Source of the DNA: a virus
Virus record (IMG/VR): IMGVR_UViG_3300002026_000042
Span: 1 to 51,883 of that record
DNA: 51,883 nucleotides
Direction: 5' to 3' (one strand)
Both the position numbers and the translations under genes were made by a program. The notes under the pieces are model-generated. The model was not told the origin of the DNA. It searched no databases and saw only the letters and a program-made list of their open reading frames with translations. Of this stretch, positions 9,168 to 42,835 are shown one piece after another (the first letter of the stretch is position 1; each line of letters begins with the position of its first letter).

Positions 9168-9218
9168 TTCAGCACCCTCCACGTTTCACACCCACCCGTT
9201 AAACCAAATCCAGAAAAA

Positions 9219-20291: not shown

Positions 20292-20334
20292 CAAACAAAA
20301 ACAAAAAACCCTTGGGAGGTTTATTTCCCAAGGG
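20292..20334 (-). terminator. strong rho-independent terminator after the major capsid gene
   Basis: Minus strand CCCTTGGGA-aataaacc-TCCCAAGGG (9-bp perfect stem) followed by TTTTTTGTTTTTGTTTG. Confidence 0.85.
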
Positions 20335-20365
20335 TCTCAAACGCCTACATTACAGGCATTTACGC

Positions 20366-22840: not shown

Positions 22841-22876
22841 CTTATAACTCCCACTTCCCAGTCTTGTTTCGACTGA

Positions 22877-24583: not shown

Positions 24584-24667
24584 GGACATCTCCCTTACTA
24601 GGGAACCTGCGCGGGGTTTTACCCCCGCGCCATCCCTCCGCTGCAACGCGAACTGCGATTCCTGTCT

Positions 24668-26371
24668 TTAGCCACGAATGTACTTGGCTTCTTCGTAGCC
24701 CTTGCCAACCTTCAAACTCTTGTGCGCTTCCATCGCCCTGATAGCCTTCGGCCACTCCGTCACCTCTGGAACCTTGAATCCCTTCAGGGTCAAGTTGTAG
24801 TGCCGCTCGATGTTGTTGATCTTACCCGAGCAGTTCCACGAAGAATAGACCGTTTCGCCATTCTCAATGGTACGGCTGAAGATCACGTAGTAGTGGTACT
24901 TGTTGGAGTTGACCCCAGTCCGCTCGCCGCCATGATCAAGGAAGGTGTAGTAGGAGGAGTGTTCGCGCTTGAGATCGTTGGGCTGAACGCCAAGGTCATC
25001 CGCCGCACGCTTCGCCATCATCACCTTCAACCGTGGGGCAAACGATGTAAGCGAATCCTGAATCGAGTTCAGGCGATTAACTTGGATCCCCTCGATGATC
25101 GAGTCCCACGGGGCCGCTTGCAGCAGCTTGGCAACCCGAACCAGTTCACTAGCAACCCGACGCATCATAACCCGATCATTCATTCCCGCAATCTTCCTGC
25201 TGCTTGTCTTAACGTCCTCGTCATCCGATAGTGCCGACAGAACAATGTCAAAATCCTGCGGGCTCATCTTCTTGATCCTCTCCTGCGCTGCCTTGAATGC
25301 CTCTGGGCTATCGTAGCTTGCTGGATTCATCATCTTGATGAAGTCGGCTTTCAATTGCGCGGGATTGCGACCATTGCCACGTTCTCCAAGAGTCTTTTTG
25401 AAAACCGCCATCTCGGCAATCTCGGTGTCGTCCTCGTAAAGGTCATTCTTTTCCAGAACAGGTTTTGCCTTCGGGGAAACCTTTGTCTTGACCTTGACTG
25501 GCTTCTTGGCCTCCTGCGCCTCTTGCGAATATCTTAATATATTCGCTGTCGCGGAATAGCTGTCGTACAGATCCTGCGCCGCCGCACGCACCGACTCTGG
25601 CAACTCGCTGCTTTTCGCCATGTTGTTAAGTTCATTCGTGCTTATGTCTGACGACCCCTGTCCCTGTAGGAACCTGATTATCTTGGCCGACAAACCCTTG
25701 ATCCTTTCCCGCGATGCTGATTCAAACTCCTTCGCAGCCGCCTGCAACGCTTCTGGAGAATCAGATTTAGCATGGGTCTTCAAAGCCTTCTCGAACCCCG
25801 CCGTAGTCTGCCCCATCTCCCTCAACCCGCTTGCGTCAGCCGTTGACGGATGATTGTTCGCGGGATGATCCTGCGGGTCGGAAACGCCACTGGAATAAAC
25901 AGTATCAGAATCAAGCCCCTTGTCCTTGATCACCTTGTCGATGTTCTGCTTGATCTTCTTGGCAAGACTCGGATTCGACTTACGGGCAGCCTTGTAGTCA
26001 TCCACCCACTTCGACAGACCATCTGACAACGCTTTCTGGGTATTCTGCTTGGAATCACCAGCGGGCTTTTTCGCATTACCCTGATTGAAATCCGTTATCT
26101 CGTCAACCGACAAGTCTTTCGGATCCTTGCCGTAGAAGTCGCCGATCTCTTTCATCTTCTTGGCGTTATCCCGCTCACGCATCTGGTTGTAAGGATTCTG
26201 GGCCATATCCCGCTGGGGTTTCTCCTGCTTCTTGACGGTGTGCTTTGACTTATCAGCAGCAGGGTGGTCATTCAGATACTTCTTCCTCTGCTCGTCCGTG
26301 TCAAACTCCATCGAAACCCGATTAACCATTGCCTTGCGCAACACCATGCCAGCTATCTTTTTCAAGTCCAT
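24668..26371 (-). CDS. multidomain protein (567 aa) with C-terminal WGR-like domain
   Basis: C-terminus ...NSNKYHYYVIFSRTIENGETVYSSWNCSGKINNIERHYNLT...KAIRAMEAHKSLKVGKGYEE fits the WGR domain pattern. An internal SSRKIAG-MNDRVMMRRVASELVRVAKLLQAA junction lies at aa 390..420. Confidence 0.5.
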   Translation of the reverse strand: MDLKKIAGMVLRKAMVNRVSMEFDTDEQRKKYLNDHPAADKSKHTVKKQEKPQRDMAQNPYNQMRERDNAKKMKEIGDFYGKDPKDLSVDEITDFNQGNAKKPAGDSKQNTQKALSDGLSKWVDDYKAARKSNPSLAKKIKQNIDKVIKDKGLDSDTVYSSGVSDPQDHPANNHPSTADASGLREMGQTTAGFEKALKTHAKSDSPEALQAAAKEFESASRERIKGLSAKIIRFLQGQGSSDISTNELNNMAKSSELPESVRAAAQDLYDSYSATANILRYSQEAQEAKKPVKVKTKVSPKAKPVLEKNDLYEDDTEIAEMAVFKKTLGERGNGRNPAQLKADFIKMMNPASYDSPEAFKAAQERIKKMSPQDFDIVLSALSDDEDVKTSSRKIAGMNDRVMMRRVASELVRVAKLLQAAPWDSIIEGIQVNRLNSIQDSLTSFAPRLKVMMAKRAADDLGVQPNDLKREHSSYYTFLDHGGERTGVNSNKYHYYVIFSRTIENGETVYSSWNCSGKINNIERHYNLTLKGFKVPEVTEWPKAIRAMEAHKSLKVGKGYEEAKYIRG

Positions 26372-26383: not shown

Positions 26384-26686
26384 TTAACAACCGATTGTAA
26401 TCCCGTTTTGATCCCCACCATCCAGCCACCTGAAGAATGAATTGTTTATCAACTTTTTCAAACGAGGCGCGGTAAGCCTTGTCACAGGTGATCCAGAATA
26501 CACCACGATATACCCGTTCATCCCCTCGAAACAGCGTACTGGATTCTGGTTCCCGAACACAGCCCTCAGCATCTTTACCCGATCCTCTGGAATCTCGGCA
26601 AAGTCGATTTCAGCCGACGCCGTGACCGACTTGGCCTTGACAAGCGAACTCGCGACCATCTTCAACTCTTTCGCAATCCTGTTCAT
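26384..26686 (-). CDS. hypothetical protein (100 aa) with shared N-terminal leader
   Basis: ATG at 26686 follows the upstream stop (26697). Starts MNRIAKELKMVASSLVKA. Confidence 0.6.
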   Translation of the reverse strand: MNRIAKELKMVASSLVKAKSVTASAEIDFAEIPEDRVKMLRAVFGNQNPVRCFEGMNGYIVVYSGSPVTRLTAPRLKKLINNSFFRWLDGGDQNGITIGC

Positions 26687-26696: not shown

Positions 26697-27755
26697 TTAA
26701 AAAGACCGTTCTGCAAACTCCCTACCGATCACACTGTCGGGCCAAGCATGAAACTCCTTCCACACCGCATCCTCGTCATTCATGTCAATTCCGAACTTTT
26801 CAGAAATCTCCTTCGTGATTAACTCCTTCGTCTTATCAGTCATTGACCTTGACGGCAAGACGAACTTGACCTGCGGAAGGGAATTATCCCGATTCGTGTA
26901 TTCATACAAGTCCTGCATCCCGTCAAAGCTCCCGTACTGGTACTTGCTAACCAGCTTGTTGACCGCCTCTGACGTCGGGCCATCAGCCCACCTGATGCTG
27001 ACTGAATTGCCGCCAGAATAAGAACTAGACCTGACCTCGAACTTGGTTCTAGGGAATGTCTTTTTCAGCAAGGTCTTGATTACAGCCGAAGCGGCAGCAT
27101 GATCGGTAGCGGCCTGCACCACCTTTGCGATCACCAGACCATTGACTTTGTTGAACCGACCAGCAACCTTACGGGAACCCATCTGACCGTTCAACGACTT
27201 GGCATAGATGATTGTCAGGGCAAGTCTCGCAACCTCCCACCCGTTCTCGTCCCCCGAATCAGCAAGGTCAAGAATCACGGAACGCGCCCCGCGCTTGTAC
27301 GTTTCGCGCTTCTCTGGGGTCATTTGGCTCAGCTTGTCGTAAACGATCTTTGACAGCTTCTGTATCTCCGAATCGGAAAGACCATGATCGTAAGCATCAA
27401 GTTCATCTTTCAGGAACGATAGAGGAAGCAATCCCCCACCAGACACCGTTTGATTGCGGGTCTTCTCCTCCGCCATCATGTCTGAAATAAGATCATTGAC
27501 CATGCGTGCTGTCGTCTGCCTGCTCGTGGATGTCTCATGGTCTAACGACCCGACACTCACATCCCAGAACCCATAGGTCTTCAACTCCCTGTCTGGCGGA
27601 TTCCATACTACCGTCAAGGGAATACCGTCAACCCGTCCGTCCAAGCGATACGCCCCGCTATACCCCAAAGGCTTCTTTTGCAACTTGCCTAGGTAATTGA
27701 CGCCAGCGACAATGCTTTTGGCCACCTGAATCAGATCTCTTGAAATCTTGTTCAT
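26697..27755 (-). CDS. leader-bearing protein (352 aa) with C-terminal polyvalent-protein-type domain (LPD29-like)
   Basis: Starts MNKISRDLIQVAKSIVAG. C-terminal FPRTKFEVRSSSYSGGNSVSIRWADGPTSEAVNKLVSKYQYGSFDGMQDLYEY resembles a large-polyvalent-protein-associated domain as I recall it. Internal GSRKVAG. Confidence 0.5.
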   Translation of the reverse strand: MNKISRDLIQVAKSIVAGVNYLGKLQKKPLGYSGAYRLDGRVDGIPLTVVWNPPDRELKTYGFWDVSVGSLDHETSTSRQTTARMVNDLISDMMAEEKTRNQTVSGGGLLPLSFLKDELDAYDHGLSDSEIQKLSKIVYDKLSQMTPEKRETYKRGARSVILDLADSGDENGWEVARLALTIIYAKSLNGQMGSRKVAGRFNKVNGLVIAKVVQAATDHAAASAVIKTLLKKTFPRTKFEVRSSSYSGGNSVSIRWADGPTSEAVNKLVSKYQYGSFDGMQDLYEYTNRDNSLPQVKFVLPSRSMTDKTKELITKEISEKFGIDMNDEDAVWKEFHAWPDSVIGREFAERSF

Positions 27756-28437: not shown

Positions 28438-28496
28438 AATACCACCTCCTATATCTATCCATCACCACACTCGCGGGAACACCCCGCACTTAAACA

Positions 28497-30266: not shown

Positions 30267-30305
30267 TTCACCCTCCATACCCTTACCATAAATATCAAAA
30301 AAAAG

Positions 30306-30713: not shown

Positions 30714-30714
30714 A

Positions 30715-31047: not shown

Positions 31048-31052
31048 CGCTA

Positions 31053-31340: not shown

Positions 31341-31343
31341 GAT

Positions 31344-32102
31344 CTAACCCTTCCTTCCCGCAACCTTGCGATCTGGCTCCGCCAGCCGATCCTCAATAAT
31401 ACCACCATCGTTCATAATGCTGTTGACAAGCGACTGCTCGATCACATACCACGAGCTGCCAAACTTGCGCTGCTGTTTGTATTTGAGAAGATTCTTATCC
31501 ATAGAGATAACCATTGCTGCCCACGGGTAGTTCCGCCGATCCAAATGCCGTTTTATGTCATTTCTTTCAAAAATAAACTGATTCTTGTTTATCACCTGAC
31601 AATACTTCTTCCCGTTGAAGTGATGAATCAAGACGACCCCGACAGTCTTTGCCTCCACGTCATCAGATACCTCCAGCACGTCAATCTGCTCGATCACGGG
31701 TATGTCAAGCCCCGACTTGCTTTTCATCTCCCGCAGCTTGGCGTAGAAGTTCGCCCCATGCCCTCCTGGCCTCTCATTCAACCCCAGTTTGGTCATCACC
31801 CACACATGGATCATCTCGTGTATAAGAATCGCGTCAGCCCTGTCCTGATCCATCTTCATAAAATCCGAAAGCTCCAGCTTCCTGACCGTTATGTCCGCCT
31901 GCCCCGTACGCTTGTATAATTCACGGTTAAGAATAAGTGCCCGAGCAACGACCCGACCGCCAATTGTCTTTGACCTAGTCCACCCCAGCGGCACATCAGT
32001 AAGCTCCCCGCCGAACAAGCGGGTATTCCAGTACCTGTACCGCGACTTTAGATCAAAGTCATCACGAATGCCAGCCGTACGATCTATATAATGCCTGTTC
32101 AT
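31344..32102 (-). CDS. SprT-like zinc metalloprotease domain protein (252 aa)
   Basis: YWNTRLFGGEL near the N-terminus and HExxH (AILIHEMIHVWV), as in the SprT/Spartan family. C-terminus ends DRKVAGRKG. No SD before the ATG. Confidence 0.65.
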   Translation of the reverse strand: MNRHYIDRTAGIRDDFDLKSRYRYWNTRLFGGELTDVPLGWTRSKTIGGRVVARALILNRELYKRTGQADITVRKLELSDFMKMDQDRADAILIHEMIHVWVMTKLGLNERPGGHGANFYAKLREMKSKSGLDIPVIEQIDVLEVSDDVEAKTVGVVLIHHFNGKKYCQVINKNQFIFERNDIKRHLDRRNYPWAAMVISMDKNLLKYKQQRKFGSSWYVIEQSLVNSIMNDGGIIEDRLAEPDRKVAGRKG

Positions 32103-32144
32103 ATAGCGTAGTCCAATTATTACTTTGTCAAAACCAGAACACCT

Positions 32145-33413
32145 TTAGGTTCCCCGCGTCACCCAATCAGGAACGACCTTAGACTTCCCGAAATAATAAG
32201 TATTCCCGTCAATACTCATAGACCCCCTTGAAGACTCTCCAATACTATCAGGCTTTTCATTGATAGAAACTGAATCAGCATCGGGAATCCCCACCGTCTT
32301 CCCATCAATACCCAAACTGTAAGCACTTGGCGATTCGCCCTCTAAAACACTCAAGAACTTGGATTTACCACTATCACTCATTGAATCCGCCATCTTCTTG
32401 AGCTTATCAGGAACAATAGCCATTAGTTTTTGTGCTCTGTCCATATGAAAAACAAAACCCTCAAATGGAAACCGAACCCTATTTTCCAATATATTCTGTT
32501 TCGCAGTGCGTCTATCAAAGGTTTGATGCTGGAGGTTTATTTCACCATTTATTTCCTTCAACCAAGCATTTAATAGGTCTGGATCTAAAGTCTTCAGATA
32601 ATCACCGACATCATTGTTAAGATATTTAACTAAGTCACTGAGATCATTTTCAGCCTTCCGAATGGCATCCGCAAAAACAGACTCAACTTCCGAGATGAAC
32701 TTGGAGGTCTGAGCCGCACTGAGCATATAGAAACTTTTGTAAGGATATCCAGCACCAACAAGTTGCCCCTTGTAGAGTCGCAACTTAAATCCACCCGACG
32801 TCAAAAACCCATGTTCCTGATAAATCCAGAACTTCTTTCGCTCTCTGCGTATCTCCCCACCCTTGTAAAAGGCATCAACATCAACCTCCACCTCGTCGCT
32901 ATATGCTTTGGTGATACCCCAACCGGTGGGAGGATGTATAAATGTAACCATCGGGGTTCTTATCTCATCTAAGTCCTCAAAAGTAACACCAGCATTACTA
33001 CTGCTTTTATCTGTCCACACCTCTTTCACAGGAGTGTGAGAATCATATTTCCACACCTTACCCTTCTCATACATATCCTGAATCTCTGAAGTCGGCTTTT
33101 TATTCAACTCCTCCTTCGTTTCTTCTTTCTTAACATCCCCGATCATGTTCAGGTAAAACACCTTCTCGACCTTGCGGGCGTCGTTTGCCTCGTACCCCTT
33201 GACCGCCATCTCCCCCTTCATCGGGAATACCTGCAACGGTACAAGCTCCCGCTTGCTCTTGGATCCATCCTTCTTCGTGTACTCGAACTGGACAGTATCC
33301 CCGTCCTTGATCGCCTCCTTGAACTCCCGCTCAAGATTGTCCTTCTCGTCAACCTTGCGAACACCAGCAGACAACACCTTGGCAATCCTAACTAATTCCT
33401 TAGCAATGTTCAT
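32145..33413 (-). CDS. leader-bearing protein (422 aa) with WYL-like N-terminal domain
   Basis: ATG at 33413 lies 7 nt after GGGAGG. Starts MNIAKELVRIAKVLSAG. TVQFEYTKKDGSKSKRELVPLQVF...VKGYE...KVFYLNMI is a WYL-like pattern. Confidence 0.55.
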   Translation of the reverse strand: MNIAKELVRIAKVLSAGVRKVDEKDNLEREFKEAIKDGDTVQFEYTKKDGSKSKRELVPLQVFPMKGEMAVKGYEANDARKVEKVFYLNMIGDVKKEETKEELNKKPTSEIQDMYEKGKVWKYDSHTPVKEVWTDKSSSNAGVTFEDLDEIRTPMVTFIHPPTGWGITKAYSDEVEVDVDAFYKGGEIRRERKKFWIYQEHGFLTSGGFKLRLYKGQLVGAGYPYKSFYMLSAAQTSKFISEVESVFADAIRKAENDLSDLVKYLNNDVGDYLKTLDPDLLNAWLKEINGEINLQHQTFDRRTAKQNILENRVRFPFEGFVFHMDRAQKLMAIVPDKLKKMADSMSDSGKSKFLSVLEGESPSAYSLGIDGKTVGIPDADSVSINEKPDSIGESSRGSMSIDGNTYYFGKSKVVPDWVTRGT

Positions 33414-33415
33414 AA

Positions 33416-34903
33416 TCACGCCTCCCATCGTTTCAAAAGTTCCCTCTCCGCCAGATCCTTGTCCAGCGGGATCCGTTTGACCGCAGCATCATCCATGATG
33501 TCCTGAACGATCCCCATAGCCCGCCCGACGTCCTTCCCAGGTTTGACCCCGAGAATACGCATGACGTCACGCCCGTCAAGAATAGGTTTCCCCCCGACTG
33601 GCGCGTCCTTGACCGCATCTTCAATCCGTTCCCGCAGATCAGGAATCTCGTTGTGCGACGGGATTGTCCCGAGTGAATCCGCCTCGGCCAGATCCAGAAC
33701 AGCATCCACCAGTTCCTCTCCCACCTCCCTAACAAACTTACGTATGGATTTTTCCGACACCCCTTCGTTCATCCGCCCGAGACTGTGTGGGCGCATGTGG
33801 TTTTCCACCAGTTTGCGAACCTTGCTGACCGCCGCGTTATCAAACTTCATCCGTCGCATCATTGCCTCAGCCATCTCCCCGCCCGCAACCTCGTGTCCGA
33901 TGAACTTGACGAACTCCCCGAACCGTTCCTGTGTTGCAGGTTTGCCGATGTCGTGAAGCAACGCCGCCATCTGCGACTCGACCCCCGGCTTCGCACCCTT
34001 CAGCACCATCAAGGTGTGTCTGAATACGTCCCCCTCTTGGTGCCATCCGCCTTTGTTCGTCTGCTCGACACCCTTGAGAGCTTCAACCTCTGGGAGAATA
34101 TGCTTCAGAAGACCGACCACGCTCATAGCCCGCACGGCCTGCGCCAGCTTCCCGATCTTCATCACCTTGACCAGCTCCTCCCTGACCCGCTCCGCCGACA
34201 CGATGGCGATCCTACCAGCGTTCGCCTTGACTATCTTCAGGACCGACAACGGAACCTTCCACCCGTATTTCGCTTGGAAACGAATAAGACGCATCATCCT
34301 TAGAGGATCGTCGCGAAGAATCTTGTTGAAGTCCACCCCCGGATGCCCCCTGAGAATCCCGTTCTGGATGTCCGAGACACTGGTTCCCGTGAGATCGACA
34401 AGCTCCCCGCTGGACAAGTCCTTCATCAGCATATTGACGGTGAAATCTCGACGCTCCACATCGTCCGCTATGCTTCCGGGAGTCGTGACCCGCTGTCTGC
34501 TATCCTCGTCTGGAAACGACTCTTTCTGAGAATCCGAAACCTCAAGCTCCCCGCCCTTTGTCTCGTAGACCTCCCCATCGAACTCTATGTCCTCCTTGAA
34601 CGTGATCTGCCAGATGGGATACCCCGCCCCAAGCTGCCGTGGAGTCGAGACCTCGTTACCGAACTGGTTCTTGATCCAGTGCGTGAACTCCTTTGCTCCT
34701 CCCTCCCCCTCCACGACTAGATCAAGGTCTTTCGCATCCAGTCCAAGTAGTTGATCCCGTACATATCCGCCGACCGCCATCACGCGACCCTTCCAAATGG
34801 AGCTAGGAAGAATTGCCTTCATCAGACGCTCTATCTCGGCCTCCGCAGACGACGCCTCCATATTCCTTGCAATCCTCAACAACTCACTCGCGATCTTGTT
34901 CAT
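33416..34903 (-). CDS. cca: class II tRNA nucleotidyltransferase (CCA-adding enzyme) with HD domain, preceded by shared leader
   Basis: AVGGYVRDQLLGLDAKDLDLVVEG (GGxVRD...DxD), RRDFTVN, DDPLRMMRLIRF, and HD motif ...H...LLHDIGKP. N-terminus MNKIASELLRIARNMEA. Confidence 0.85.
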   Translation of the reverse strand: MNKIASELLRIARNMEASSAEAEIERLMKAILPSSIWKGRVMAVGGYVRDQLLGLDAKDLDLVVEGEGGAKEFTHWIKNQFGNEVSTPRQLGAGYPIWQITFKEDIEFDGEVYETKGGELEVSDSQKESFPDEDSRQRVTTPGSIADDVERRDFTVNMLMKDLSSGELVDLTGTSVSDIQNGILRGHPGVDFNKILRDDPLRMMRLIRFQAKYGWKVPLSVLKIVKANAGRIAIVSAERVREELVKVMKIGKLAQAVRAMSVVGLLKHILPEVEALKGVEQTNKGGWHQEGDVFRHTLMVLKGAKPGVESQMAALLHDIGKPATQERFGEFVKFIGHEVAGGEMAEAMMRRMKFDNAAVSKVRKLVENHMRPHSLGRMNEGVSEKSIRKFVREVGEELVDAVLDLAEADSLGTIPSHNEIPDLRERIEDAVKDAPVGGKPILDGRDVMRILGVKPGKDVGRAMGIVQDIMDDAAVKRIPLDKDLAERELLKRWEA

Positions 34904-34928
34904 TTCTATCTCCTTTAGTCACACACCA

Positions 34929-37900
34929 TCATCCACGACGGGAAGCCCACACCGTTATCAAATCAGCAGCAGCGGGATTCTGGCGCAAATCGTAATCCAC
35001 CACAGCCGTCCCTGGGTTCAAATCCATGCGAACCTGCTTTGAATCAGGCCCCTTCGTTTTCAACCGCTCCGAAAGCCAATCCCTAACCGACTCATTCACT
35101 GCCTTGGAGTTCAGACCACGAAGGTCACTACGGTATTCAGCGTGGCTCGACCAGTCGACCTCCACGTCCCGCTTCTTCGACATCGGCAGCGTCTGACCAT
35201 AATCATACGGCCCGTAGATAGACTTGACCTCCGCATTGCTCAAATCATCCGCTGGGCTCTTGGTCTTCACGAACCGTTGCAGCTTCTCAAGAATCTTTCC
35301 AAGCGTGTCGGGCGTGAACCGATTCTTTGCCTTCTGCAATACGTCCATGATCCCCGCCTCGAACGCCCGCCCCTCATGGGTCATGCGCAAGTCAGCCTTG
35401 TCCTTCTGACGCTTCGTCTTGTGGAACTTGCTCTTATCCCGATGAACCCGTGTCCCCAAGTTCCGATCAGTGGGCATCCGATGCTTTGTCGGCATTGCAG
35501 CAGCACGGGCAAGCCCGTAGGTGGCGTCGCTGGGTCTCGGGGGACGCTTGGCCTGCGGGGCTGGATAGACTTCAAGATCAGCCTTTGCCTCGCTCAAGTC
35601 CGCGCTGGAATAATTCGGGATGACCGTGTACTTATCCACAATCCCCTTCAGCACCCCGAACGACTTGACGATAGACTTGGACTGCTCCAGAATCAAGTCC
35701 TCTGGAACAAAACGCGGCCTGTTGCGATTGCGGAACAGGCTGACCTCCACGGGCACCCAAGCATAGATCAGGAATATCCGATACCCCTCTGCCCGCGCAA
35801 CCTGCGCCTTGCTGATGATACTGCGGGGGTCACGCCCCGTACCGTCAACAATCACGGGATCACCCGTTCCGCTCGTGACAATCTGCTTGTACTGTGCGTC
35901 TGAAATCTGCTTGCTCAGATCATGCAACTTGCCAGGGTTCTCGGAATCATACTCGGGGTGCGCTTGCTTTATTTCATCGGGATCAACCACCTTGGAGTTC
36001 AGATACTTCATGTAGCGTTTCGACCGCAGCCACGATTTTCCGGACCCCGCCGGACCTATGAATAAAACGGCTTGCCAGCGAATGTCCTGCGGCCCAGCGA
36101 CCTTGCATAACCCAGCAACCCCCATCTCCCGCAACGCCGCTATGATCGGGTCTCGATCAATACTTGAAAGTTTCATATCAGGATCTCCATCTATATCTTT
36201 ATCCCGTTGCTCATCCGTCTTGGTCTTAGTCCTCCACGGCTTCTTGACATCCTCGCGAGGGGATCGCTGCTCGACATCATGCGTGTGCTTCTTTGATGTA
36301 CCACCCGTGTCAGAAATCAGATCTCGGTCTTTCCTATTGACCTGTAGCCCCCTCGCTCCACGACGCGACATGGACGCCGCCTTGCCCGTTAGGTACTCCA
36401 TCTCGCTCTGGAACAACGGCCACTGTTTCAACTTTGATGCAAGCTGCGACGGGTTACCAGCATCCTGATCAAAGGAGTCCATAAGCTCGCGGAACTCCTG
36501 CTCCGTCATCTTTTCCTTTACGCTAGACAGGCTATGGCGAGCCTTGGCGACGGCCCCCGGTGCTCCCAACTCAATGTCCTTTGCCGCCGCCCGAAGGTCA
36601 TGCCGCCCCGTCTTCTTCAGGAACGACTTCATAACCTCCGTCGCCGCCGAATCAACAGGGGACTTGTCTACCCCATCGATGTTCAACTGCGTCACGGCCT
36701 TGCCATCCTTGTTGGAGAACTGCGTAGACCCCGTCTTTCCCTTGACTGGCTTACCCTTCATATCCTTTGTGAACTTGTCGAACTGCCTCTCTGCAACCTC
36801 GTCCCCGAACAGGGAATCAACAATCTCCCCATCTGGCGAATAGGTCATGTTGACATTCATCATCTTGTTGGCCTTGTCAAACTCAAAGCTGTTCAGCCGC
36901 CCGCTGTACCGACTAAGAACGTCCGCGCTGACAGAGAACTTGCCCTCGATCATATCCGACACCTGACGGTGCAACAGATCCTTGTCAACATCGGCAATGT
37001 CATTGTCCCCGTCAATATGCTCGTGCAACGCATTCTTGTTCGCGTCCTGCATCTGCTTCGACTTCTTTACCTTTTCCTGAACCTCTGGTGATTCGTACTT
37101 TTCCTTGTCCTGTTTGAACTTGGCAACCGCCGCCTCATACTCCTCGGGCTTCGCGAACTTTGCCTGCTCTGGCTCCTTCGGCTTCGGCGGCTCCATCTCC
37201 GCAGCCAGCCGCAACTTACAAACCGTTTCCATCGTTTCAGGCTTGCGGATGAAAAGTTCCTGAACCTTGTCAGTACCGAACAACGCCGTGTTATCAGCAA
37301 GACGGACGGCAGATGCCACTGGTTCCTTGTCCCAGTCCATCTCCGCCGCGTCATGCGTGGTAACCAGATTCTTGTACTTCTCGAATCCGTCCTTTCCGAA
37401 CAGCTTTGCGTACCGATCCGTCTCCTCCCCGATTGCCACGACAGACGCATCCTTGTGACCGCTACCCTTTGTTGCATCCGTGGCGATAGCCCCCATAGTA
37501 TAACCAATGTCGTGATTCGCCATTACCGACATGACCATGACCTTGTCTATACCATTGATCGGCGAACCAGTCTTGGAAAGCTGACCCATCATCTGCATCG
37601 CACTCTCGCAGTTTCCAGCAACGTGCCTTACCCCGTGATCACCAATCGGACGCCGCCTCTGCTCCACCTCCTGATGCAACATCCGCTTGACGTCCTCCCG
37701 CAAGAACTCGTCCAGATCCTCTTGTGAAACATCTCCAAGCGACCCGTCGTTTGCCGCCTCCTCTACCGCGCTTGCAAAATGTTCAACGAACTTGTCAGCC
37801 CTCGGACGGGCGTCATCAGACAATGATGCTGCAAACTTGTCAATCACGCTGGTTGCGTTCTTCTTCAACTCCCCAGCAAAGGCTTTCGCATTTTCCTTGC

Positions 37901-38711
37901 TGACAGGCTCCTTGCTGACCGACTTCGTCTCCTTGATCTGAGGGTTATCATAACGGGAAAGATTACGGCCCACGTTCTTCGTGAAGGTCTCAAGATCCGC
38001 CTTGTTGTAATCAGGCAACCCAGCACTCGCCGCACGCCCCGCCTCAATCGCCTTGTCAACCATTGCCTTCTGCTCTGGCGTCAAGTCCTTGACCTTTGCA
38101 GCCGTTCCATCAGGAAACCTGACAACCACATTCTTTGTCAACTGCGTCGGATGCAGCTTGTGCGCCTCCCACCCCTCACCAGCGGGGAATGCGGGGTGAT
38201 CCGTCACCGATACCTCTCGGTCAATCTTGTACGGCTTTTTCTTCTGATCTTCCTGCTGCTTAGGCTTCTGCTTATCCTTCTGATCGTCCTGCTGCTTAGC
38301 CTTCTCATCCTGTTCCTTGACGTGATGCAACGATCTATCAGCATCAGGATGTGCTTCCAGATAGGTGTCTATCTGATTCTTCGTGTCAAAGTCGATTGCG
38401 AAGCGACGGGAAGCGGTTGTCACCTGTGGGAGCAAGGATATAACGCCCTCCCCCTCATCTAGCTTCTTCCAGTCGATCTCCTCTTTATCCCCAGACGGAG
38501 CATCCCCTTTCGCCTCCTCGTCCCCAGCCTCTGGTTGTTCATTCCCGTCAGACTCGGGCGCAGCGGGTGTTTCAGACGATTCTCCCTCAGATGAATTAGG
38601 CTCTGGATCAGCCGTATCCTCGGACTCCCCGCCCGACTGCAACACCTCAAGCATCTTCTGCTTGATTTCATCTTTCAGCTTTTCGTCAACCGCCGCACGC
38701 CTTGTCATCAT
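34929..38711 (-). CDS. 1260-aa polyvalent-type protein: acidic N-terminus, HD phosphohydrolase domain, P-loop kinase (zeta-toxin/AAA_33-like) domain, C-terminal small domain
   Basis: HD: GDHGVRHVAG...MANHDIGYTMG (about 37500..37640). Walker A LFIGPAGSGKSW (about 36027..36056) followed by a D-x-TG Walker B-like segment. C-terminal HAEYRSDLRGL... resembles DUF4258-type small nuclease/toxin domains (weak). The ATG overlaps the portal stop (ATGA). Confidence 0.65.
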   Translation of the reverse strand: MMTRRAAVDEKLKDEIKQKMLEVLQSGGESEDTADPEPNSSEGESSETPAAPESDGNEQPEAGDEEAKGDAPSGDKEEIDWKKLDEGEGVISLLPQVTTASRRFAIDFDTKNQIDTYLEAHPDADRSLHHVKEQDEKAKQQDDQKDKQKPKQQEDQKKKPYKIDREVSVTDHPAFPAGEGWEAHKLHPTQLTKNVVVRFPDGTAAKVKDLTPEQKAMVDKAIEAGRAASAGLPDYNKADLETFTKNVGRNLSRYDNPQIKETKSVSKEPVSKENAKAFAGELKKNATSVIDKFAASLSDDARPRADKFVEHFASAVEEAANDGSLGDVSQEDLDEFLREDVKRMLHQEVEQRRRPIGDHGVRHVAGNCESAMQMMGQLSKTGSPINGIDKVMVMSVMANHDIGYTMGAIATDATKGSGHKDASVVAIGEETDRYAKLFGKDGFEKYKNLVTTHDAAEMDWDKEPVASAVRLADNTALFGTDKVQELFIRKPETMETVCKLRLAAEMEPPKPKEPEQAKFAKPEEYEAAVAKFKQDKEKYESPEVQEKVKKSKQMQDANKNALHEHIDGDNDIADVDKDLLHRQVSDMIEGKFSVSADVLSRYSGRLNSFEFDKANKMMNVNMTYSPDGEIVDSLFGDEVAERQFDKFTKDMKGKPVKGKTGSTQFSNKDGKAVTQLNIDGVDKSPVDSAATEVMKSFLKKTGRHDLRAAAKDIELGAPGAVAKARHSLSSVKEKMTEQEFRELMDSFDQDAGNPSQLASKLKQWPLFQSEMEYLTGKAASMSRRGARGLQVNRKDRDLISDTGGTSKKHTHDVEQRSPREDVKKPWRTKTKTDEQRDKDIDGDPDMKLSSIDRDPIIAALREMGVAGLCKVAGPQDIRWQAVLFIGPAGSGKSWLRSKRYMKYLNSKVVDPDEIKQAHPEYDSENPGKLHDLSKQISDAQYKQIVTSGTGDPVIVDGTGRDPRSIISKAQVARAEGYRIFLIYAWVPVEVSLFRNRNRPRFVPEDLILEQSKSIVKSFGVLKGIVDKYTVIPNYSSADLSEAKADLEVYPAPQAKRPPRPSDATYGLARAAAMPTKHRMPTDRNLGTRVHRDKSKFHKTKRQKDKADLRMTHEGRAFEAGIMDVLQKAKNRFTPDTLGKILEKLQRFVKTKSPADDLSNAEVKSIYGPYDYGQTLPMSKKRDVEVDWSSHAEYRSDLRGLNSKAVNESVRDWLSERLKTKGPDSKQVRMDLNPGTAVVDYDLRQNPAAADLITVWASRRG

Positions 38712-41700
38712 TTTCTCAACCTCCCAACCGCTTCAGCCGCAACCTCCGCCGCCGTATCAATTTCATCATCGCTAGGGTTATCCCCCAACGTCTCTATTGC
38801 CGCCGCAGCAGCCGACTCAATCTGACTATCCCCACCGCTATCACCCGACATCGTTCCATCAGCCTCCTCGGAAAGCCCCCAGTCACCCCCGCCACCTTGG
38901 TATTCTCCCGAGCCACCATCTGCATACCCAGACTCGTCCCCTCCGCCTCCGCCCATTCCTCCATCCCCCTCGTCGGGCTTGGCGTATTTCAGACCTAGGT
39001 ACTTGGCAATGCGTTCAACAACGTCAGAGTTCTCAACGATATTCCGACCCACCTCACTACTGATTTCCTCAAGCAGCCTGTTGAAGTTGGCGTCCTTTAC
39101 GGTAAGCATATCCTTCTTCAGTCCCTCGCTTATCTCGTCTGCATTAAGGTTGAATAATTCATAAATTATATCAACAGGAATACTTCCCTTCTGATACAAC
39201 TGGAACAAGGACTCAAAGACCTCCTGATTGTCTCGGATCGTTATGCGATTGAAACCGACCGTCGGATGCAGGTACTTCTTTATCCCATTAGCCCCCATCT
39301 CGTACCACTTGTGCGCCTCGCAGATCGGAATGAAAAGCTGTTCCTCTATGTAATTCCGAAGCATCTCTCGGGTCAACACGAACGTGGTGTTCATAATCTC
39401 AACGGTTATCCTGTTGCCCGTGAAGTTCCCCTCACCCGTCATCAGCTCCCGCGTTATCCCCAAGGCGGCAAACACCTGATTCTCGATCCGCTCGTACTCC
39501 TGACTCAAATCCAACAACCGATCCTGCGCCCCGATCTGATTCCATTCGATCTGGTAGTTCGTGACAACGCTGTAGTCTGGATCCAGCATCGACATATCTA
39601 TCTGAGTGCGAAGCTCATCGACCTCGCTCGGCATCAGCCCCGGCGCTGAAATCACGTTTCGGGGCGTCATGTTCCTGCTTGCCAGACTCAACTGCGCATA
39701 CCGATACTGCTCCTTCTGCAACATCGGAACCAGCACCCGCTCCAGCACCGACGCGCCCAGATCAAGATACGGGCTCTTACGCCTCGCGAAATGATGAACG
39801 AAAGAACCCGTCATAGGATCACTGTCCATAACGATACAATCATTCTCGACCACCATATCCACAAGCTCTTGCGGTATGTTGTCGAGGATCTCCGAGTTCA
39901 TATCCGACCTGTCGCAAGACCCGTCAGGCAACTCGCTGCCCGTGTCATCGGATGCCCCAGCCTGCTGTTTGATCAGTTGGATCAACCGCGTCGGCCTGTA
40001 CTCCACCCGCTTCTTGTCGGAGAATGGGTATTGGAATACCCCCACCTCCTCGGGCGGCAACATGATAGCCTTACTCCACATCTTCTTTTCCTCATCCCAC
40101 TCATGGAACAGGAAGCAATTATGAGTACGGATACCAGCAGCGCAGTACGTGTGAGAGCCTTTTACCTCGAAGTTGTACACATGTCCTGAATAAAAAGGTC
40201 TATCAACTTCGTCAACCCTATAGTAAAACTTGCCATCAACCTGTTTGAACGTCGGATTAACTTCTACGACTTCGCTCCACGTTGCCTCTTTTTCTTTAAG
40301 GCACCCATGAATCAACGATTCAACAAAACCACGAGTTCCGATATTGACGTTAAAACATATTTTATTACCAACAACACGTTGGTCTCCGATAGATGTATCC
40401 ACCATCCTCTTACTTGCACTGAATGTCATTGGGAATCCACATTTTATTGAAATGTGAAAAAGTTGAATCATTAGCTCCTTGTTCGTCCCCGCTATTCCCA
40501 CGGTTAGTCCAGACTCTTTTTCAGATACACATCCGTCACTGTCGATAAGCCCACGAAGCAACCACACTAATTTTTCTTTCGGCAACTCCATTACCCAACC
40601 AGGGATTTTCTTACTACCACACTCGGATCCGAAGTTTATATTCCACCACGAAGCAAATACAGGGTCTCTAACAACGACATGATCCATGTGATCGTAAATC
40701 ACCTTTTCACTAGACACCGCCTCGTCTCCAAACAACGAAACAGCAATGTCGTTTATTCGGTTGAAAAACTCTGGGACCAACGGAGAAACACAAATGTCCA
40801 ACCCGATAAACTCCCGTGAAAACTTGTTCTTATTCTTCCACAGCCAACCATCTCCAAGCCAATACCCAAGATAATACAAAAAGTCTTCATCAATGCGGAT
40901 AGACCTCGGAACAAGCGATTCCATGCGAATGGTACGATCCACGACAGACTCTTCGTCTCTTTTGTCTGTCGGAAACCACCGCATAGAACTTCCACCGCCA
41001 TAACCAAGGCTAGTTCTTTCCGTTTTTATAACCCCCTTCTGTCTAAGATAATATGCCGCACTTCTAACTCTTACACCGTCTGAGACCCCGAGCATCAAAG
41101 CGACCTCAGAGCACTCCTTAACAACTGGTTCTTTAAGAGTCGAAAGCCACGAAACAATTGACTCTCGAACCTCCTTGGATGACACGTTTATTCCCGACGG
41201 AGTCTCGTATTCACAAACAACCCCAGAATCATCAACCGAAACAGACGAATAGAACGATCTTAAAGAAGGAAGAACCTCGTCAAACCAATCAATCTTGTCT
41301 ATGTCTACATTCTTTTCTATTCCCCCGATCCCGATCCAGTCCCCCCTATGAACTTCCTCGGCTTTCACCATCTTCTCTTGACCGTCTCTCAACACAAAGA
41401 CAGGATGCTCACTCGTTGGCGAGAACTCCAAACCAGAAAGTCGCGACACCCCTAGACTGACAAGCCGTTCCGACACCTTGCGCCGTGCAATCCCTGAAAC
41501 TTCCGAAAAGTTCCCATCAGCGTCAAGCACCATGTCTCCTTCTCTTATATCACTGATAGGAACAACACCTTCACGAGTAAGAATAGGAGTGTCTCCCTTA
41601 AAGCAGTTCCCGATCATGGAGGCCTCCATCAGGATAGACTGGGCAAGGTCAAACATGTGAAGCACCTTCATCTGGTTCTCGAAAAACTCCTTGATCTCCG

Positions 41701-42835
41701 CCTGCTTCTCCTTGTCCTGCATCTTCGGCATGTGCAAAGTGAACTTGGACATCGGCAAGTCAGATAGCAAGTCAAGCCCGCGACCGACATACGCATCGGT
41801 GTTGTGAGTCACCATGCCGTTGCAGATATAGGACTTCTCATCTCCTTCCGCATCAACCTCTATGTTGTGAACGATGTCATCTTCTTGCGAGAACGTCACC
41901 TCTTTGACCTGGAATGCCGCATAGCCATTTATCAAAAAGGCACCAGGAGCAGACTCTTTCGTTTCAACTGGATCCCACAAGACAGAATCTGAAACAAGCC
42001 CATTCGCACTCCACGATGGAATCGAGATATGAATCTGCTTGTTGCCACTGTCATATCCAGACCCCGAAGTCCGATCATACACCGCATACCGACACATCAC
42101 CCTTGCTTGTTCGTTCGTAATCTCCCCCGCCCTAGACGACGGCAATGGAGGAAGAAGAACATAGTCCCCCGGCTTGACATCCTCGGCATGAACCCATTCA
42201 GGATTGAATTGGATGTTATTCTTGAACCGCCCTCCATTCGCATAACGCAACTTCTCACCGCGAAGTATCCAGTAAGGATGATGGTGGGTTGTTTTAAGAT
42301 GATTCTGTAGGCACCACGCTTTGATCGTCGTAGCCTTGTCGTCTGCAAATCGACGCTCAAACTTATCTTTAACTAGCCTCACGGTTCCCAGTCCCGTAAC
42401 GACACTATCCCCGATCTGTACATCTCGGATGTCTTTTACCGTGCCATCAGCCATCGTCACTAGACCTAGGTCGTTGTCGCTTAGGTAGATACAACGGGCG
42501 AAATATCTGTACCACTGGTATTTCTCTGCCAGCGTGACGGGCCAATACAACCGCCCGCCGTTCTGCTGGTTCATCATTGTGAAATACATCGGAACGTCAT
42601 ACGTCCCCGTACGATCCCCAAGCCCGTAGGCGTAGCTCGACCTGTACGCCTCCATCCTGTACCCAGACTGGTATGGGGCGGCCTGCTGCGCATCGTCCAG
42701 CAGCATACCTGCGGTTCTATCAAACCCGAACCCGCCAGCCCCCTCTGCCTTCTTGGCAATACGAGCCTTCAGCGGATCAGCCTTGCCGACCGCCACCTTA
42801 GGCACCTTCATTCCCGCCGTAACTTTCCCAGCCAT
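38708..42835 (-). CDS. portal protein interrupted by two inteins (extein about 648 aa)
   Basis: The extein sequence reads through as ...KYQWYRYFAR/TDAYVGRGLDLLSDLPMSKF...MEASMIGN/CFLFHEWDEEKKMW.... Sits downstream of the terminase as expected for a portal. Gly/Asp/Ser-rich acidic C-terminal tail. Confidence 0.8.
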   Translation of the reverse strand: MAGKVTAGMKVPKVAVGKADPLKARIAKKAEGAGGFGFDRTAGMLLDDAQQAAPYQSGYRMEAYRSSYAYGLGDRTGTYDVPMYFTMMNQQNGGRLYWPVTLAEKYQWYRYFARCIYLSDNDLGLVTMADGTVKDIRDVQIGDSVVTGLGTVRLVKDKFERRFADDKATTIKAWCLQNHLKTTHHHPYWILRGEKLRYANGGRFKNNIQFNPEWVHAEDVKPGDYVLLPPLPSSRAGEITNEQARVMCRYAVYDRTSGSGYDSGNKQIHISIPSWSANGLVSDSVLWDPVETKESAPGAFLINGYAAFQVKEVTFSQEDDIVHNIEVDAEGDEKSYICNGMVTHNTDAYVGRGLDLLSDLPMSKFTLHMPKMQDKEKQAEIKEFFENQMKVLHMFDLAQSILMEASMIGNCFKGDTPILTREGVVPISDIREGDMVLDADGNFSEVSGIARRKVSERLVSLGVSRLSGLEFSPTSEHPVFVLRDGQEKMVKAEEVHRGDWIGIGGIEKNVDIDKIDWFDEVLPSLRSFYSSVSVDDSGVVCEYETPSGINVSSKEVRESIVSWLSTLKEPVVKECSEVALMLGVSDGVRVRSAAYYLRQKGVIKTERTSLGYGGGSSMRWFPTDKRDEESVVDRTIRMESLVPRSIRIDEDFLYYLGYWLGDGWLWKNKNKFSREFIGLDICVSPLVPEFFNRINDIAVSLFGDEAVSSEKVIYDHMDHVVVRDPVFASWWNINFGSECGSKKIPGWVMELPKEKLVWLLRGLIDSDGCVSEKESGLTVGIAGTNKELMIQLFHISIKCGFPMTFSASKRMVDTSIGDQRVVGNKICFNVNIGTRGFVESLIHGCLKEKEATWSEVVEVNPTFKQVDGKFYYRVDEVDRPFYSGHVYNFEVKGSHTYCAAGIRTHNCFLFHEWDEEKKMWSKAIMLPPEEVGVFQYPFSDKKRVEYRPTRLIQLIKQQAGASDDTGSELPDGSCDRSDMNSEILDNIPQELVDMVVENDCIVMDSDPMTGSFVHHFARRKSPYLDLGASVLERVLVPMLQKEQYRYAQLSLASRNMTPRNVISAPGLMPSEVDELRTQIDMSMLDPDYSVVTNYQIEWNQIGAQDRLLDLSQEYERIENQVFAALGITRELMTGEGNFTGNRITVEIMNTTFVLTREMLRNYIEEQLFIPICEAHKWYEMGANGIKKYLHPTVGFNRITIRDNQEVFESLFQLYQKGSIPVDIIYELFNLNADEISEGLKKDMLTVKDANFNRLLEEISSEVGRNIVENSDVVERIAKYLGLKYAKPDEGDGGMGGGGGDESGYADGGSGEYQGGGGDWGLSEEADGTMSGDSGGDSQIESAAAAAIETLGDNPSDDEIDTAAEVAAEAVGRLRK
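40118..41605 (-). mobile_element. portal intein 2 (496 aa) with LAGLIDADG homing endonuclease
   Basis: aa 411..906. Starts CFKGDTPILTREGVVPISDIREGDMV, has block B SPTSEHPVFV, LAGLIDADG motifs YLGYWLGDGW and LLRGLIDSDGC, and ends HVYNFEVKGSHTYCAAGIRTHN followed by Cys. The DNA is visibly more AT-rich than the flanks. Confidence 0.85.
41801..42493 (-). mobile_element. portal intein 1 (231 aa, no clear endonuclease motifs)
   Basis: aa 115..345. Starts CIYLSDNDLGLVTMADGTVKDIRDVQIGD (block A), has KTTHHHPYW (block B TxxH), and ends IVHNIEVDAEGDEKSYICNGMVTHN followed by Thr. Confidence 0.8.

Follow-up and report, generated by a model that had tools for sequence, protein, structure and literature searches.

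Organization and product of the CCA-enzyme gene

The window, by which we mean the whole 51,883-nt stretch of virus DNA that was analysed, contains an ORF located exactly at 33416..34903 (minus strand). It starts with ATG and is preceded by an AAAGGAG Shine-Dalgarno sequence 7 nt upstream. On the evidence of the ORF, Pfam, PHROG, PDB, AF2 and Foldseek, it encodes a predicted 495-amino-acid class II tRNA nucleotidyltransferase (NTase) with a C-terminal HDIG domain, referred to here as the CCA enzyme. Pfam placed the PolyA_pol head (PF01743) at aa 43-185 (3.9e-16), PolyA_pol_RNAbd at aa 222-275 (1.8e-11) and HD (PF01966) at aa 294-411 (2.2e-11). The PHROG tRNA nucleotidyltransferase profile phrog_2244 matched with 2.1e-55 and spanned aa 41-462 only.

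The pol-beta head domain (aa 40-185; 34349..34786, minus strand) carries motif A, the A-B loop and motif B. Motif A (GGxVRD...DxD, the catalytic carboxylates) is GGYVRDQLLGLDAKDLD at aa 45-61, with GGYVRD..DLD, and motif B (RRDxTxN, ribose recognition) is RRDFTVN at aa 151-157. Motifs C, D and E lie in aa 170-246, in the neck region (34166..34396, minus strand). Motif C occupies aa 170-185, and motif E is ERVREELVK at aa 238-246. Motif D, the EDxxR amino-acid template, is DDPLRMMRLIRF at aa 198-209, in which D198 takes the place of the canonical Glu. The HD (HDIG) phosphohydrolase domain (aa 294-411; 33671..34024, minus strand) was identified by Pfam, by its invariant HD residues and by alignment to the HD part of 3wfo. 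Its signature H...HD...H...H...D is formed by H296, H317-D318 (in LLHDIGKP), H337, H369 and D409.

Residue conservation was read from an alignment of 57 sequences. Invariant positions were G45, G46, R49, D50, D59 and D61 in motif A; R151, R152 and N157 in motif B; D170, G173 and D178 in motif C; D199, R202, R205, R208 and F209 in motif D; E243 and K246 in motif E; and all six HD residues, H296, H317, D318, H337, H369 and D409. The remaining motif positions were nearly invariant or variable. The AF2 model had a pLDDT of 92.6 and a pTM of 0.87. All 46 significant Foldseek matches in the PDB were CCA-, CC- or A-adding enzymes or bacterial poly(A) polymerase, and the model aligned with 3wfr, 3h38, 1miv, 9kma and 4x4w at TM scores of 0.55-0.71 in the head-neck-body-tail fold. 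By sequence and predicted structure, the product is thus a structurally complete class II tRNA NTase of the CCA-adding type fused to an HDIG domain. A sequence-only reading of this DNA had claimed a full set of class II motifs and a C-terminal HD domain. Pfam, PHROG, motifs A-E and the invariant residues bear this out, and the structure prediction that it had named as a check gave a confident model whose significant matches were all class II tRNA NTases or poly(A) polymerase.

The activity of the enzyme is a question separate from that of its N-terminus. We consider it unlikely that the protein adds CC, A or poly(A) instead of complete CCA, or that its main substrate is the phage tmRNA or some other RNA. 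Sequence is a poor guide to the specificity of class II enzymes; the top PDB matches by sequence and by fold are the CC-adding-type enzyme of A. aeolicus (3wfo/3wfr), and motif D reads DDxxR and not EDxxR. However, the 3wfo match comes from the HD and neck regions, whereas the head aligns best with CCA enzymes, and neither of the templating residues, D199 and R202, varies. CC-adding enzymes reportedly have a shortened A-B loop; here the loop appears to be full length and is strongly conserved. It is the segment QKESFPDEDSRQR at aa 126-138, in which E128, R136 and R138 are invariant; its likeness to characterised loops is one of length and not of residue-level alignment. The HD domain of E. coli Cca is said to have 2',3'-cyclic phosphodiesterase and phosphatase activity. 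Neither the window nor any of eight related loci had a tRNA gene, and the tmRNA gene of the window already encodes its own CCA.

Location in the head-morphogenesis block

The CCA-enzyme gene lies in a block with the order TerL, portal, portal-adjacent multidomain protein, CCA enzyme, and further on prohead protease, scaffold and major capsid protein (MCP). The large terminase gene (TerL; 44007..47144, minus strand) has a LAGLIDADG insert, and the portal gene (38708..42835, minus strand) carries an intein. The portal-adjacent gene (34929..38711, minus strand) encodes a 1260-amino-acid protein with a Zeta/AAA_33-type P-loop kinase and an internal leader-like segment with a GLQVNRKDRDLISDTGG linker. 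This protein had been called an HD + kinase protein. The kinase was confirmed, but the HD domain was not supported: its H..HD..H..H signature is seen by eye only, Pfam gave nothing at E up to 5, and the hhalign probability was 1%. On the other side of the CCA enzyme is a SprT-like zinc metallopeptidase gene (31344..32102, minus strand).

The prohead (head maturation) protease gene (23582..24646, minus strand) was recognized by 41% identity to Tunturi_5 gp331 (9e-48) and by phrog_18299 (1.2e-11); Pfam and PDB sequence searches pointed to neither a family nor a specificity for it. An HK97-style targeting role for a leader-like C-terminus of this protease was considered and set aside, the resemblance being weak and below the HMM threshold. 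Two very acidic scaffold-like proteins of 201 and 342 amino acids (21812..23482, minus strand) were assigned from sequence, position and orthologs. The MCP (20366..21229, minus strand) belongs to the contractile-phage lineage of phage G, Tunturi_5 and LR745208. Just past the MCP gene lies an intrinsic-terminator-like hairpin with a 13-bp stem (20305..20338, minus strand). It is the sole long-stem candidate on the coding strand within 20000-39999; the stems of the other minus-strand candidates in this range measure 5-6 bp, and the total number of candidates does not differ from that in shuffles. This layout suggests late co-transcription of the block together with the CCA-enzyme gene.

The order of the block, CCA-enzyme gene included, is kept in seven contig types. 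Matching synteny was found in loci L004, L007, L008, L010, L011/L013 and L014, with portal identities of 48-67%, and a ferritin-like protein is also conserved in the block. Judged from these predicted neighbours, the CCA-enzyme gene belongs to the head-morphogenesis block and is conserved there. When 25 kb of the window was compared by megablast with 50,697 phage records, no match was returned; therefore, the virus has no close cultured relative in this collection.

The N-terminal leader of the CCA enzyme

The first 19 residues of the CCA enzyme, MNKIASELLRIARNMEASS (34847..34903, minus strand), form a predicted basic amphipathic helix, here called the leader, that falls outside the tRNA NTase family profile. 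HMM matches, the limits of PHROG and tblastn matches, and AF2 define it. In the PHROG and tblastn comparisons, the matched region starts at aa 38-44, past the leader, which is not part of the tRNA NTase enzyme family. AF2 gave the helix at residues 2-15 a pLDDT of 54-57, with aa 10-17 below 50, while the enzyme body was confidently modelled. Inspection excluded a Sec or Tat signal peptide, because the leader lacks a hydrophobic core and is instead charged and amphipathic.

A leader HMM was trained only on 82 foreign CCA-enzyme homologues, from other phages, and used at a threshold of 5.7 bits. Its top match was the CCA enzyme of the window (10.8 bits). Seven matches in the window reached the threshold, all on the coding strand and six at start Mets, against a mean of 0.1 in thirty shuffles, and the N-termini of five other window proteins were recovered. 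All five matches of a strict leader regex were on the coding strand, each right behind a start Met; the opposite strand had none. That the CCA enzyme carries a leader had been claimed before; the regex, and the foreign-trained HMM set against shuffles, uphold it as a peptide shared with other proteins of the same phage. The codons of the leaders differ synonymously, which indicates that selection acts on the peptide and rules out conservation at the RNA or DNA level.

Several genes near the CCA enzyme bear the leader. The gene directly downstream (32145..33413, minus strand) has the leader MNIAKELVRIAKVLSAG and a weak WYL-like match. An LPD29 protein (26697..27755, minus strand) and a 100-amino-acid protein (26384..26686, minus strand) begin with MNKISRDLIQVAKSIVAG and MNRIAKELKMVASSLVKA, respectively. 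A 567-amino-acid protein (24668..26371, minus strand) has two leaders, a weak one at its N-terminus and a strong one, MMRRVASELVRVAKLLQAA, inside the protein at nt 25165; in L004, the C-terminal module is encoded by a gene of its own that bears a leader. Farther away are a 206-amino-acid protein with MIAREILKVAALIV (5042..5662, minus strand), matched by PHROG 37844 from aa 27, and a 143-amino-acid protein with MNKIVSEIMKVAGALES (4597..5028, minus strand), whose homologue adjoins the CCA-enzyme gene in L005. A small protein (8907..9182, minus strand) has the variant MNDKIASQMLIRVAKTIAAA, one residue longer. PHROG and Pfam gave nothing useful for the small ORFs in 2394-9182 or for the conserved small head-block genes.

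Downstream of the leader helix, the tagged proteins have small residues only (AG, AS, AA). A [SAG]-x-E sequence occurs within about 20 residues in some of them and is not conserved; no conserved cleavage motif was found after the leader among the tagged proteins, and no (L/I/A)-x-E site was established. An IMG/VR scan for exact back-translated IAKELLKIAK returned a single locus, L012; the tag varies too much to be found by exact patterns. The leader is missing in the relatives phage G and Tunturi_5, which are the nearest isolates, and in LR745208, L009 and the LR756501 fusion; no cultured phage of the tag-bearing clade was found among the records compared. A literature search with leader strings (ELLKIAK and similar) gave no match, and a second one, directed at packaged proteins and targeting peptides in huge phages, had no relevant result.

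These comparisons identify the leader as a predicted transferable tag, acting at the peptide level, on at least six window proteins and on many proteins of related huge-phage contigs. An improbable alternative, to our mind, is that the helix is an intrinsic part of this CCA-enzyme subfamily, serving for example in dimerisation or tRNA contact, and resembles other N-termini only as amphipathic helices generally do. Its length is indeed tightly conserved: in 38 of 106 homologues, 18 residues precede the 'AEKEVERLL' anchor. Fusion proteins retain the helix internally, and a degenerate form persists in L015 with no other tagged gene nearby. However, the profile built on CCA-enzyme leaders alone matches unrelated window proteins at their start Mets, 70-fold over shuffles and on the coding strand only. 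AF2 gives the helix low confidence and no confident placement against the body, and the PHROG tRNA NTase profile and all cultured-phage homologues begin past it.

Fusions and exceptions among homologues

CCA-enzyme homologues occur in several fusions. In P0018 and P0042, the SprT-like peptidase forms the N-terminal part of a fusion with the CCA enzyme; a kinase is the partner in P0059, SET and topoisomerase domains in P0106, and the ortholog of the 1260-amino-acid upstream protein in P0051. At each of these junctions the leader is kept, Met included.

Two loci depart from the head-block arrangement. In L005, at least 12 tagged genes lie in an array within 11 kb and no head genes are found within 10 kb. 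In L015, the CCA-enzyme gene sits in an RNA-repair island with RlaP, RtcB and AAA_33, and its product has the degenerate helix mentioned above. The helix may therefore also have an enzyme-intrinsic role, and linkage to head genes is not universal.

These loci also bear on the reading that the protein is an ordinary intracellular enzyme of tRNA maturation or repair, whose helix docks or localises it elsewhere (a multi-enzyme assembly, a membrane or replication-factory site, a chaperone or unfoldase), with the head-block position a mere matter of gene order. We consider this rather unlikely. Binding to membranes or to partner proteins is common among basic amphipathic helices, phage CCA enzymes of other lineages are not known as virion proteins, and the small tagged proteins of L005 and the grouping with RlaP, RtcB and kinase in L015 fit it as well. 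Against it, synteny with portal, protease, scaffold and MCP is kept across the seven contig types, and the neighbours and fusions are of the polyvalent-protein kind that is predicted to be packaged. A repair enzyme made late would also be of little use unless carried into the next cell.

Translation-repair genes in the window

The sequence-only reading had placed the CCA enzyme among other genes for repair of the translation apparatus. The tmRNA was confirmed at 9577-9944 (minus strand) by ARAGORN and Rfam (130 bits), and the RlaP-like nucleotidyltransferase at 11862-12980 by PF10127 (6.9e-18).

Comparison with known systems

Homologues of the CCA enzyme are carried by 408 phage records. The CCA enzyme by itself is ordinary, because phage-encoded CCA enzymes are already well known. 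Phage class II NTases of PHROG 2244, such as those of Klebsiella phage vB_KpnM_KB57 and of jumbo-phage groups 2 and 3, belong to the same family and have the same domain order. They have been proposed to act in tRNA 3'-end repair or maturation, often together with RlaP and RNA ligases. CCA and RlaP enzymes of jumbo phages have already been reviewed as RNA repair (PMC7824862), and the idea that a phage CCA enzyme defends against nucleases is not new. The PHROG 2244 homologues differ in being leaderless, starting at about residue 38-44 of the window protein, and no reports place them in a portal-to-MCP block. What is new relative to the known phage CCA enzymes is the leader and the head-block position. 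E. coli Cca and the A. aeolicus enzyme (PDB 3wfo-3wfs), which include the best sequence and fold matches, likewise have an NTase head and neck followed by an HD(IG) domain; they differ in being cellular, at about 20% identity, with no N-terminal tag, and the A. aeolicus enzyme adds CC only.

The capsid-targeting sequences (CTSs) of T4 are N-terminal propeptides of 10-20 residues (PMC5694885). [quoted passage not shown] The T4, phiKZ and SPN3US peptides send enzymes into the prohead for later injection, whereas the window tag is a predicted one and has no recognisable sequence similarity to them. An RNA-repair enzyme as cargo has not been reported for T4 or phiKZ.

Effectors linked to portal or MuF genes have been argued to be packaged and injected (Iyer et al. 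2017, PMC5512222). Such polyvalent proteins share with the CCA enzyme the proximity to portal and terminase genes, and the SprT-like MPTase, the P-loop kinase (Pfam Zeta_toxin/AAA_33) and LPD29 found among them also lie near the CCA-enzyme gene. Polyvalent proteins have at least two effector domains per polypeptide. The window CCA protein has its NTase and its own HD domain only, whereas the homologues P0018, P0042, P0059, P0106 and P0051 do combine several. Unlike polyvalent fusions, the modules of the window are mostly separate genes, each bearing a leader. The survey of Iyer et al. (PMC5512222) makes no mention of a CCA-adding domain.

Encapsulins offer an analogy only: their HK97-fold shell is loaded with diverse enzymes, ferritin-like proteins among them, by means of a short terminal tag, and the head block of the window likewise has a conserved ferritin-like protein. 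The window is not an encapsulin system, having a terminase, a portal, a protease and an MCP of a contractile-phage lineage, and the leader differs from encapsulin cargo-loading peptides in sequence and in being mainly N-terminal.

A proposed head-loading tag on an injected repair enzyme

The head-block location and the tag suggest that the CCA enzyme may be taken up by the capsid and enter the host cell together with the DNA. Packaging directed by the leader, which the sequence-only reading had raised as a conditional idea, is now circumstantially supported by the head-block position, the placement of the terminator, neighbours and fusions of the polyvalent type, and the low-confidence leader helix. 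By analogy with T4, we propose that the leader may be a CTS-like head-loading tag on an injected tRNA-repair enzyme, and give this reading a probability of roughly one half.

The role of the tag would resemble that of the capsid-targeting sequence in T4, or of propeptides in the ejection proteins of phiKZ and SPN3US. Through the tag, a freshly synthesised protein would bind to the acidic scaffold or to the inner surface of the prohead and become enclosed while the head assembles. Trimming of the tag might follow, either by the prohead protease or by the SprT-like peptidase encoded nearby. The enzyme would leave the capsid with the DNA and be in the cell ahead of all phage gene expression. In the infected cell, the HD domain could take off 2',3'-cyclic or 3'-phosphate ends, and the NTase could restore 3' CCA on the tRNAs of the host, later of the phage, or on tmRNA, mending RNA damaged by host or competitor RNases. 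The adjoining kinase protein would plausibly be co-delivered.

A broader form of the proposal, which we hold more tentatively and rate at somewhat below even odds, extends it to the uncultured huge-phage lineage. A terminal amphipathic helix of about 17 residues would be a general capsid-loading tag, mobile between genes and surviving their fusion and fission. Heads would be pre-loaded with an RNA-repair kit (the CCA/HD enzyme and the kinase protein), a peptidase, LPD29 and many small proteins, to be injected against tRNA-targeting defences before phage expression.

Phage tRNA-repair enzymes are usually regarded as made after infection. If the proposal is true, delivery of a CCA-adding/HD enzyme by the virion would define a new class of injected counter-defence, by which tRNA damage, such as 3'-end trimming or the cyclic-phosphate ends left by HEPN/BECR RNases, would be countered at time zero. 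The tag may outweigh the enzyme in importance. It would tie the polyvalent-protein idea to a concrete targeting and junction element, would be a candidate tool to load foreign proteins into capsids, and would serve as a portable marker for listing the injected proteome of uncultured huge phages from metagenomes.

The CCA gene product

The CCA gene (33416-34903, minus strand) is an ORF of 495 aa starting with ATG, with a strong Shine-Dalgarno sequence, AAAGGAG, 7 nt 5′ of the start. Pfam detected a poly(A) polymerase/CCA head domain (aa 43-185, 3.9e-16), a PolyA_pol_RNAbd neck (aa 222-275, 1.8e-11) and an HD domain (aa 294-411, 2.2e-11). In PHROGs the protein matched tRNA nucleotidyltransferase phrog_2244 (2.1e-55) over residues 41-462 only. 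The closest solved structure is that of the HD-containing class II enzyme from A. aeolicus (3wfo, 7.7e-25), and other top solved relatives are fission-yeast-type cca1/cca2 and the CCA-adding enzymes of T. maritima, Arabidopsis and B. stearothermophilus.

The protein has all five class II motifs: A (aa 45-61), B (aa 151-157), C (aa 170-185), D (aa 198-209) and E (aa 238-246). Motif D reads DDPLR, with Asp in place of the usual Glu and with D199 and R202 intact. The HD signature comprises H296, H317-D318, H337, H369 and D409. In 57 homologues (53-71% identity), every motif's catalytic residues were invariant, as were the HD residues and much of the A-B motif loop, including E128, R136 and R138. 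The AlphaFold2 model built from the alignment of these homologues had a mean pLDDT of 92.6 and a pTM of 0.87, and all 46 Foldseek matches in the PDB (E≤0.001) were bacterial poly(A) polymerase or class II enzymes that add CC, A or CCA. Because Pfam and PHROGs domains, motifs, invariant residues, model and fold matches agree, the sequence-only reading described the enzyme correctly. By these predictions the gene product is a class II tRNA nucleotidyltransferase whose specificity among CCA, CC, A and poly(A) is not readable from sequence.

A leader shared by unrelated proteins

Residues 1-19 of the enzyme, MNKIASELLRIARNMEASS, lie outside every family profile. A strict motif regex for this leader gave five matches, all on the coding strand and each beginning right behind a start Met; the other strand gave none. 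As an independent test, a leader HMM trained only on the N-termini preceding 'AEKEVERLL' of 82 CCA homologues from other contigs was scanned against the six-frame translation of the window. Its best seven matches were all on the coding strand, and six of them started at model position 1 on a start Met, at nt 34903 (CCA), 5028, 27755, 33413, 26686 and 5662; the seventh is an internal copy at nt 25165 in a 567-aa ORF. At the same threshold, 30 residue shuffles averaged 0.1 matches. The regex matches at start Mets, and the foreign-trained HMM set against the shuffles, bear out the leader noticed from the sequence alone; it is real and transferable between proteins. The leader codons differ synonymously, and therefore selection acts on the peptide. 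In the AlphaFold2 model, leader residues 2-15 were helical at a pLDDT of only 54-57 (10-17, <50) and the body from residue 20 exceeded 90, which is consistent with a flexible appendage. No conserved cleavage motif was found after the leader.

With the leader HMM, at least 12 tagged genes were found within 11 kb of the related huge-phage contig L005, and more in L004, L007, L008, L010, L012 and L016. In the 40-kb head regions of phage G, LR745208 and Tunturi_5 it gave a single match, at 5.1 bits in Tunturi_5, which was spurious. The tag is clade-specific. Three L005 proteins, one of them rubrerythrin-like, carry C-terminal leader-like helices (3082-3381, 3374-3733 and 8895-9452; two Met-preceded), which are genuine tags at the C-terminus or else what is left of decayed tagged genes downstream.

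Place in the head block

The MCP (20366-21229) shares 68% identity with that of the uncultured 485-kb phage LR745208.1, 49% with Tunturiibacter jumbo phage Tunturi_5 and 38% with Bacillus phage G; no nucleotide-level relative was found among 50,697 phage records. The minus strand carries the identified genes and almost every long ORF. In transcription order, the large terminase (44007-47144, LAGLIDADG insert) is followed by the putatively intein-bearing portal (38708-42835), a 1260-aa multidomain protein, the CCA enzyme and a 422-aa tagged protein. After a SprT-like metallopeptidase and several conserved small genes comes a ferritin-like protein, followed by three tagged proteins, the first of which is the LPD29 protein. 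Downstream of the prohead protease (23582-24646; phrog_18299; 41% to Tunturi_5 gp331, 9e-48) lie two scaffold-like proteins, both very acidic, then a decoration-like protein and finally the MCP. A scan of 20000-39999 gave one strong terminator-like hairpin on the coding strand, at 20305-20338, just past the MCP gene. The HD part proposed earlier for the neighbouring 1260-aa kinase protein was not confirmed.

BLAST synteny tables showed the order TerL, small gene, portal, 1260-aa ortholog, CCA, the same small genes, ferritin-like gene and, further on, protease, scaffold and MCP in L004, L007, L008, L010, L011 and L014, and it persists though portal identity drops to 48%. L011 is the same as L013 and was binned in a Paludibacteraceae MAG, which hints at a Bacteroidota host for this low-GC sub-lineage. 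There are exceptions. In L016 the CCA gene lies among homologues of window genes 182-6528, adjoining a >2651-aa protein. In L005 it ends an array of tagged small genes. Its L015 counterpart sits in an RNA-repair island beside RlaP, RtcB and an AAA_33 kinase; the enzyme there bears only a degenerate N-terminal helix, and its surroundings contain no further tagged gene. From the last two contexts, head linkage is therefore not universal. In L009 and the 735-kb phage LR756501, a larger protein in non-structural surroundings ends in the CCA domain, which has no leader.

In L011 (10162-13842) and L013 (JALNVE010000002.1) the CCA gene is split between its N-terminal and HD parts by a ~1.2 kb gap; the 376-aa ORF within it is rich in zinc fingers and may be a mobile insertion. 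The 593-aa ferritin-like protein (28497-30278, minus strand; PF00210, 1.3e-24) is kept in the head block of L004, L007, L008, L010, L011 and L014, and a rubrerythrin-like gene sits within the L005 tag-gene array; both resemble encapsulin cargo.

Fusions at the leader

Among the 120 closest CCA homologues, the enzyme was fused to SprT (P0018, P0042), a kinase (P0059), SET/topoisomerase (P0106) and the upstream-gene ortholog (P0051), the last joined at '...ITVWAS', the C-terminus of the window's 1260-aa protein. The leader was kept at the junction in every fusion, usually with its original Met. Within the window, a Met-preceded internal leader, MMRRVASELVRVAKLLQAA (25109-25165, minus strand), lies at about residue 403 of the 567-aa ORF. 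In L004 the C-terminal module of this ORF forms a gene of its own, with a leader (17722-18303). The internal copy marks a gene fusion or fission at the leader boundary. Since fusions keep the leader and the 567-aa module is separate in L004, modules fuse and split at leaders, as would be expected if the leader or the junction were a processing or docking element that made fused and split forms functionally equal.

A conserved ~45-aa linker lacking a Pfam match, 'ARGLQVxRKDKDLxxDTGGxSKGRDREPxxKPPRDDVK', follows a leader-like helix inside the 1260-aa protein (aa 785-825; 36240-36360, minus strand), in some CCA homologues at the N-terminus, and as a 193-aa protein that almost stands alone; besides the window it is found at L008 9136-9717 and in P0015, P0021, P0027, P0034, P0035 and P0063. 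Different head-block proteins also share a short motif, 'FDTxxxxxxYLxxHPxADxSxHxVK', which lies close behind a leader or close to the N-terminus; it occurs in the 567-aa (aa 21-47; 26230-26310) and 1260-aa proteins (aa 105-131; 38320-38400), both on the minus strand. In the L010/L011 lineage, leaders are followed by 'YxYDPxHxNKPxGxGWxxTxxGW' instead.

Other elements of the window

The tmRNA (9577-9944, minus strand; Rfam 130 bits) and the RlaP-like gene (PF10127) of the sequence-only reading are both present. The tmRNA encodes the tag peptide AGYKSIDNSIAFPGARAFALAA and already its 3′ CCA; its acceptor stem contains a G3-U pair, and G seems to replace the usual A as discriminator. No tRNA genes were found in the window or in eight related loci. 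RlaP lies in a non-structural block between MCP and tmRNA (11862-17893, minus strand). The block also encodes a radical-SAM-like protein (14078-15469) and a protein weakly similar to S-AdoMet lyase (17102-17893), whose N-terminus faintly resembles the leader (3.2 bits).

The portal has 1375 aa versus 645-653 aa in L004, L008 and L014, and contains Intein_splicing/Hint modules, a LAGLIDADG homing endonuclease and a second Hint-like match at ~aa 126-155, which suggests one or two inteins. The large terminase (1045 aa versus ~601 aa in relatives) has LAGLIDADG_3 at aa 338-429 and is therefore probably an intein host too. Just downstream of the MCP terminator, a 712-aa ORF (18202-20340, minus strand) joins methyltransferase-like segments to a LAGLIDADG_2 homing endonuclease; LR745208.1 has a homologue with 31% identity at the same position.

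Proposed role of the leader

A repair-enzyme gene within a presumably late head block makes most sense if its product is carried into the next cell. Its neighbours share hallmark domains (SprT-like MPTase, Zeta-toxin-type P-loop kinase, LPD29) with the polyvalent proteins predicted by Iyer et al. to be packaged and injected (PMC5512222). By analogy, the tag may act like the T4 capsid-targeting sequences of 10-20 residues (PMC5694885) and the propeptides of SPN3US/phiKZ ejection proteins (PMC10052503). It would dock cargo onto the acidic scaffold core, so that the cargo is enclosed in the prohead, after which either the prohead protease or the SprT-like peptidase might trim the tag; for comparison, P1 DdrB is processed before packaging (PMC5512222). 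The CCA enzyme would be ejected together with the DNA. In E. coli Cca, the HD domain acts on 2′,3′-cyclic and 3′-phosphate ends. The phage HD domain could heal such ends and the nucleotidyltransferase could rebuild CCA. We put the probability of this composite reading, loading by the tag and ejection for tRNA repair, at about one half.

Phage CCA-adding enzymes are common, with homologues in 408 phage records, and those of jumbo phages have been reviewed together with RlaP (PMC7824862); the enzyme alone is not new. The searchable literature yielded no account of the tag, of its occurrence on many unrelated proteins, of how it behaves where proteins are fused, or of a tRNA-repair enzyme with a fixed position in the head-assembly block. 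If the proposed role holds, these features would together represent a variant of known head-targeting systems.
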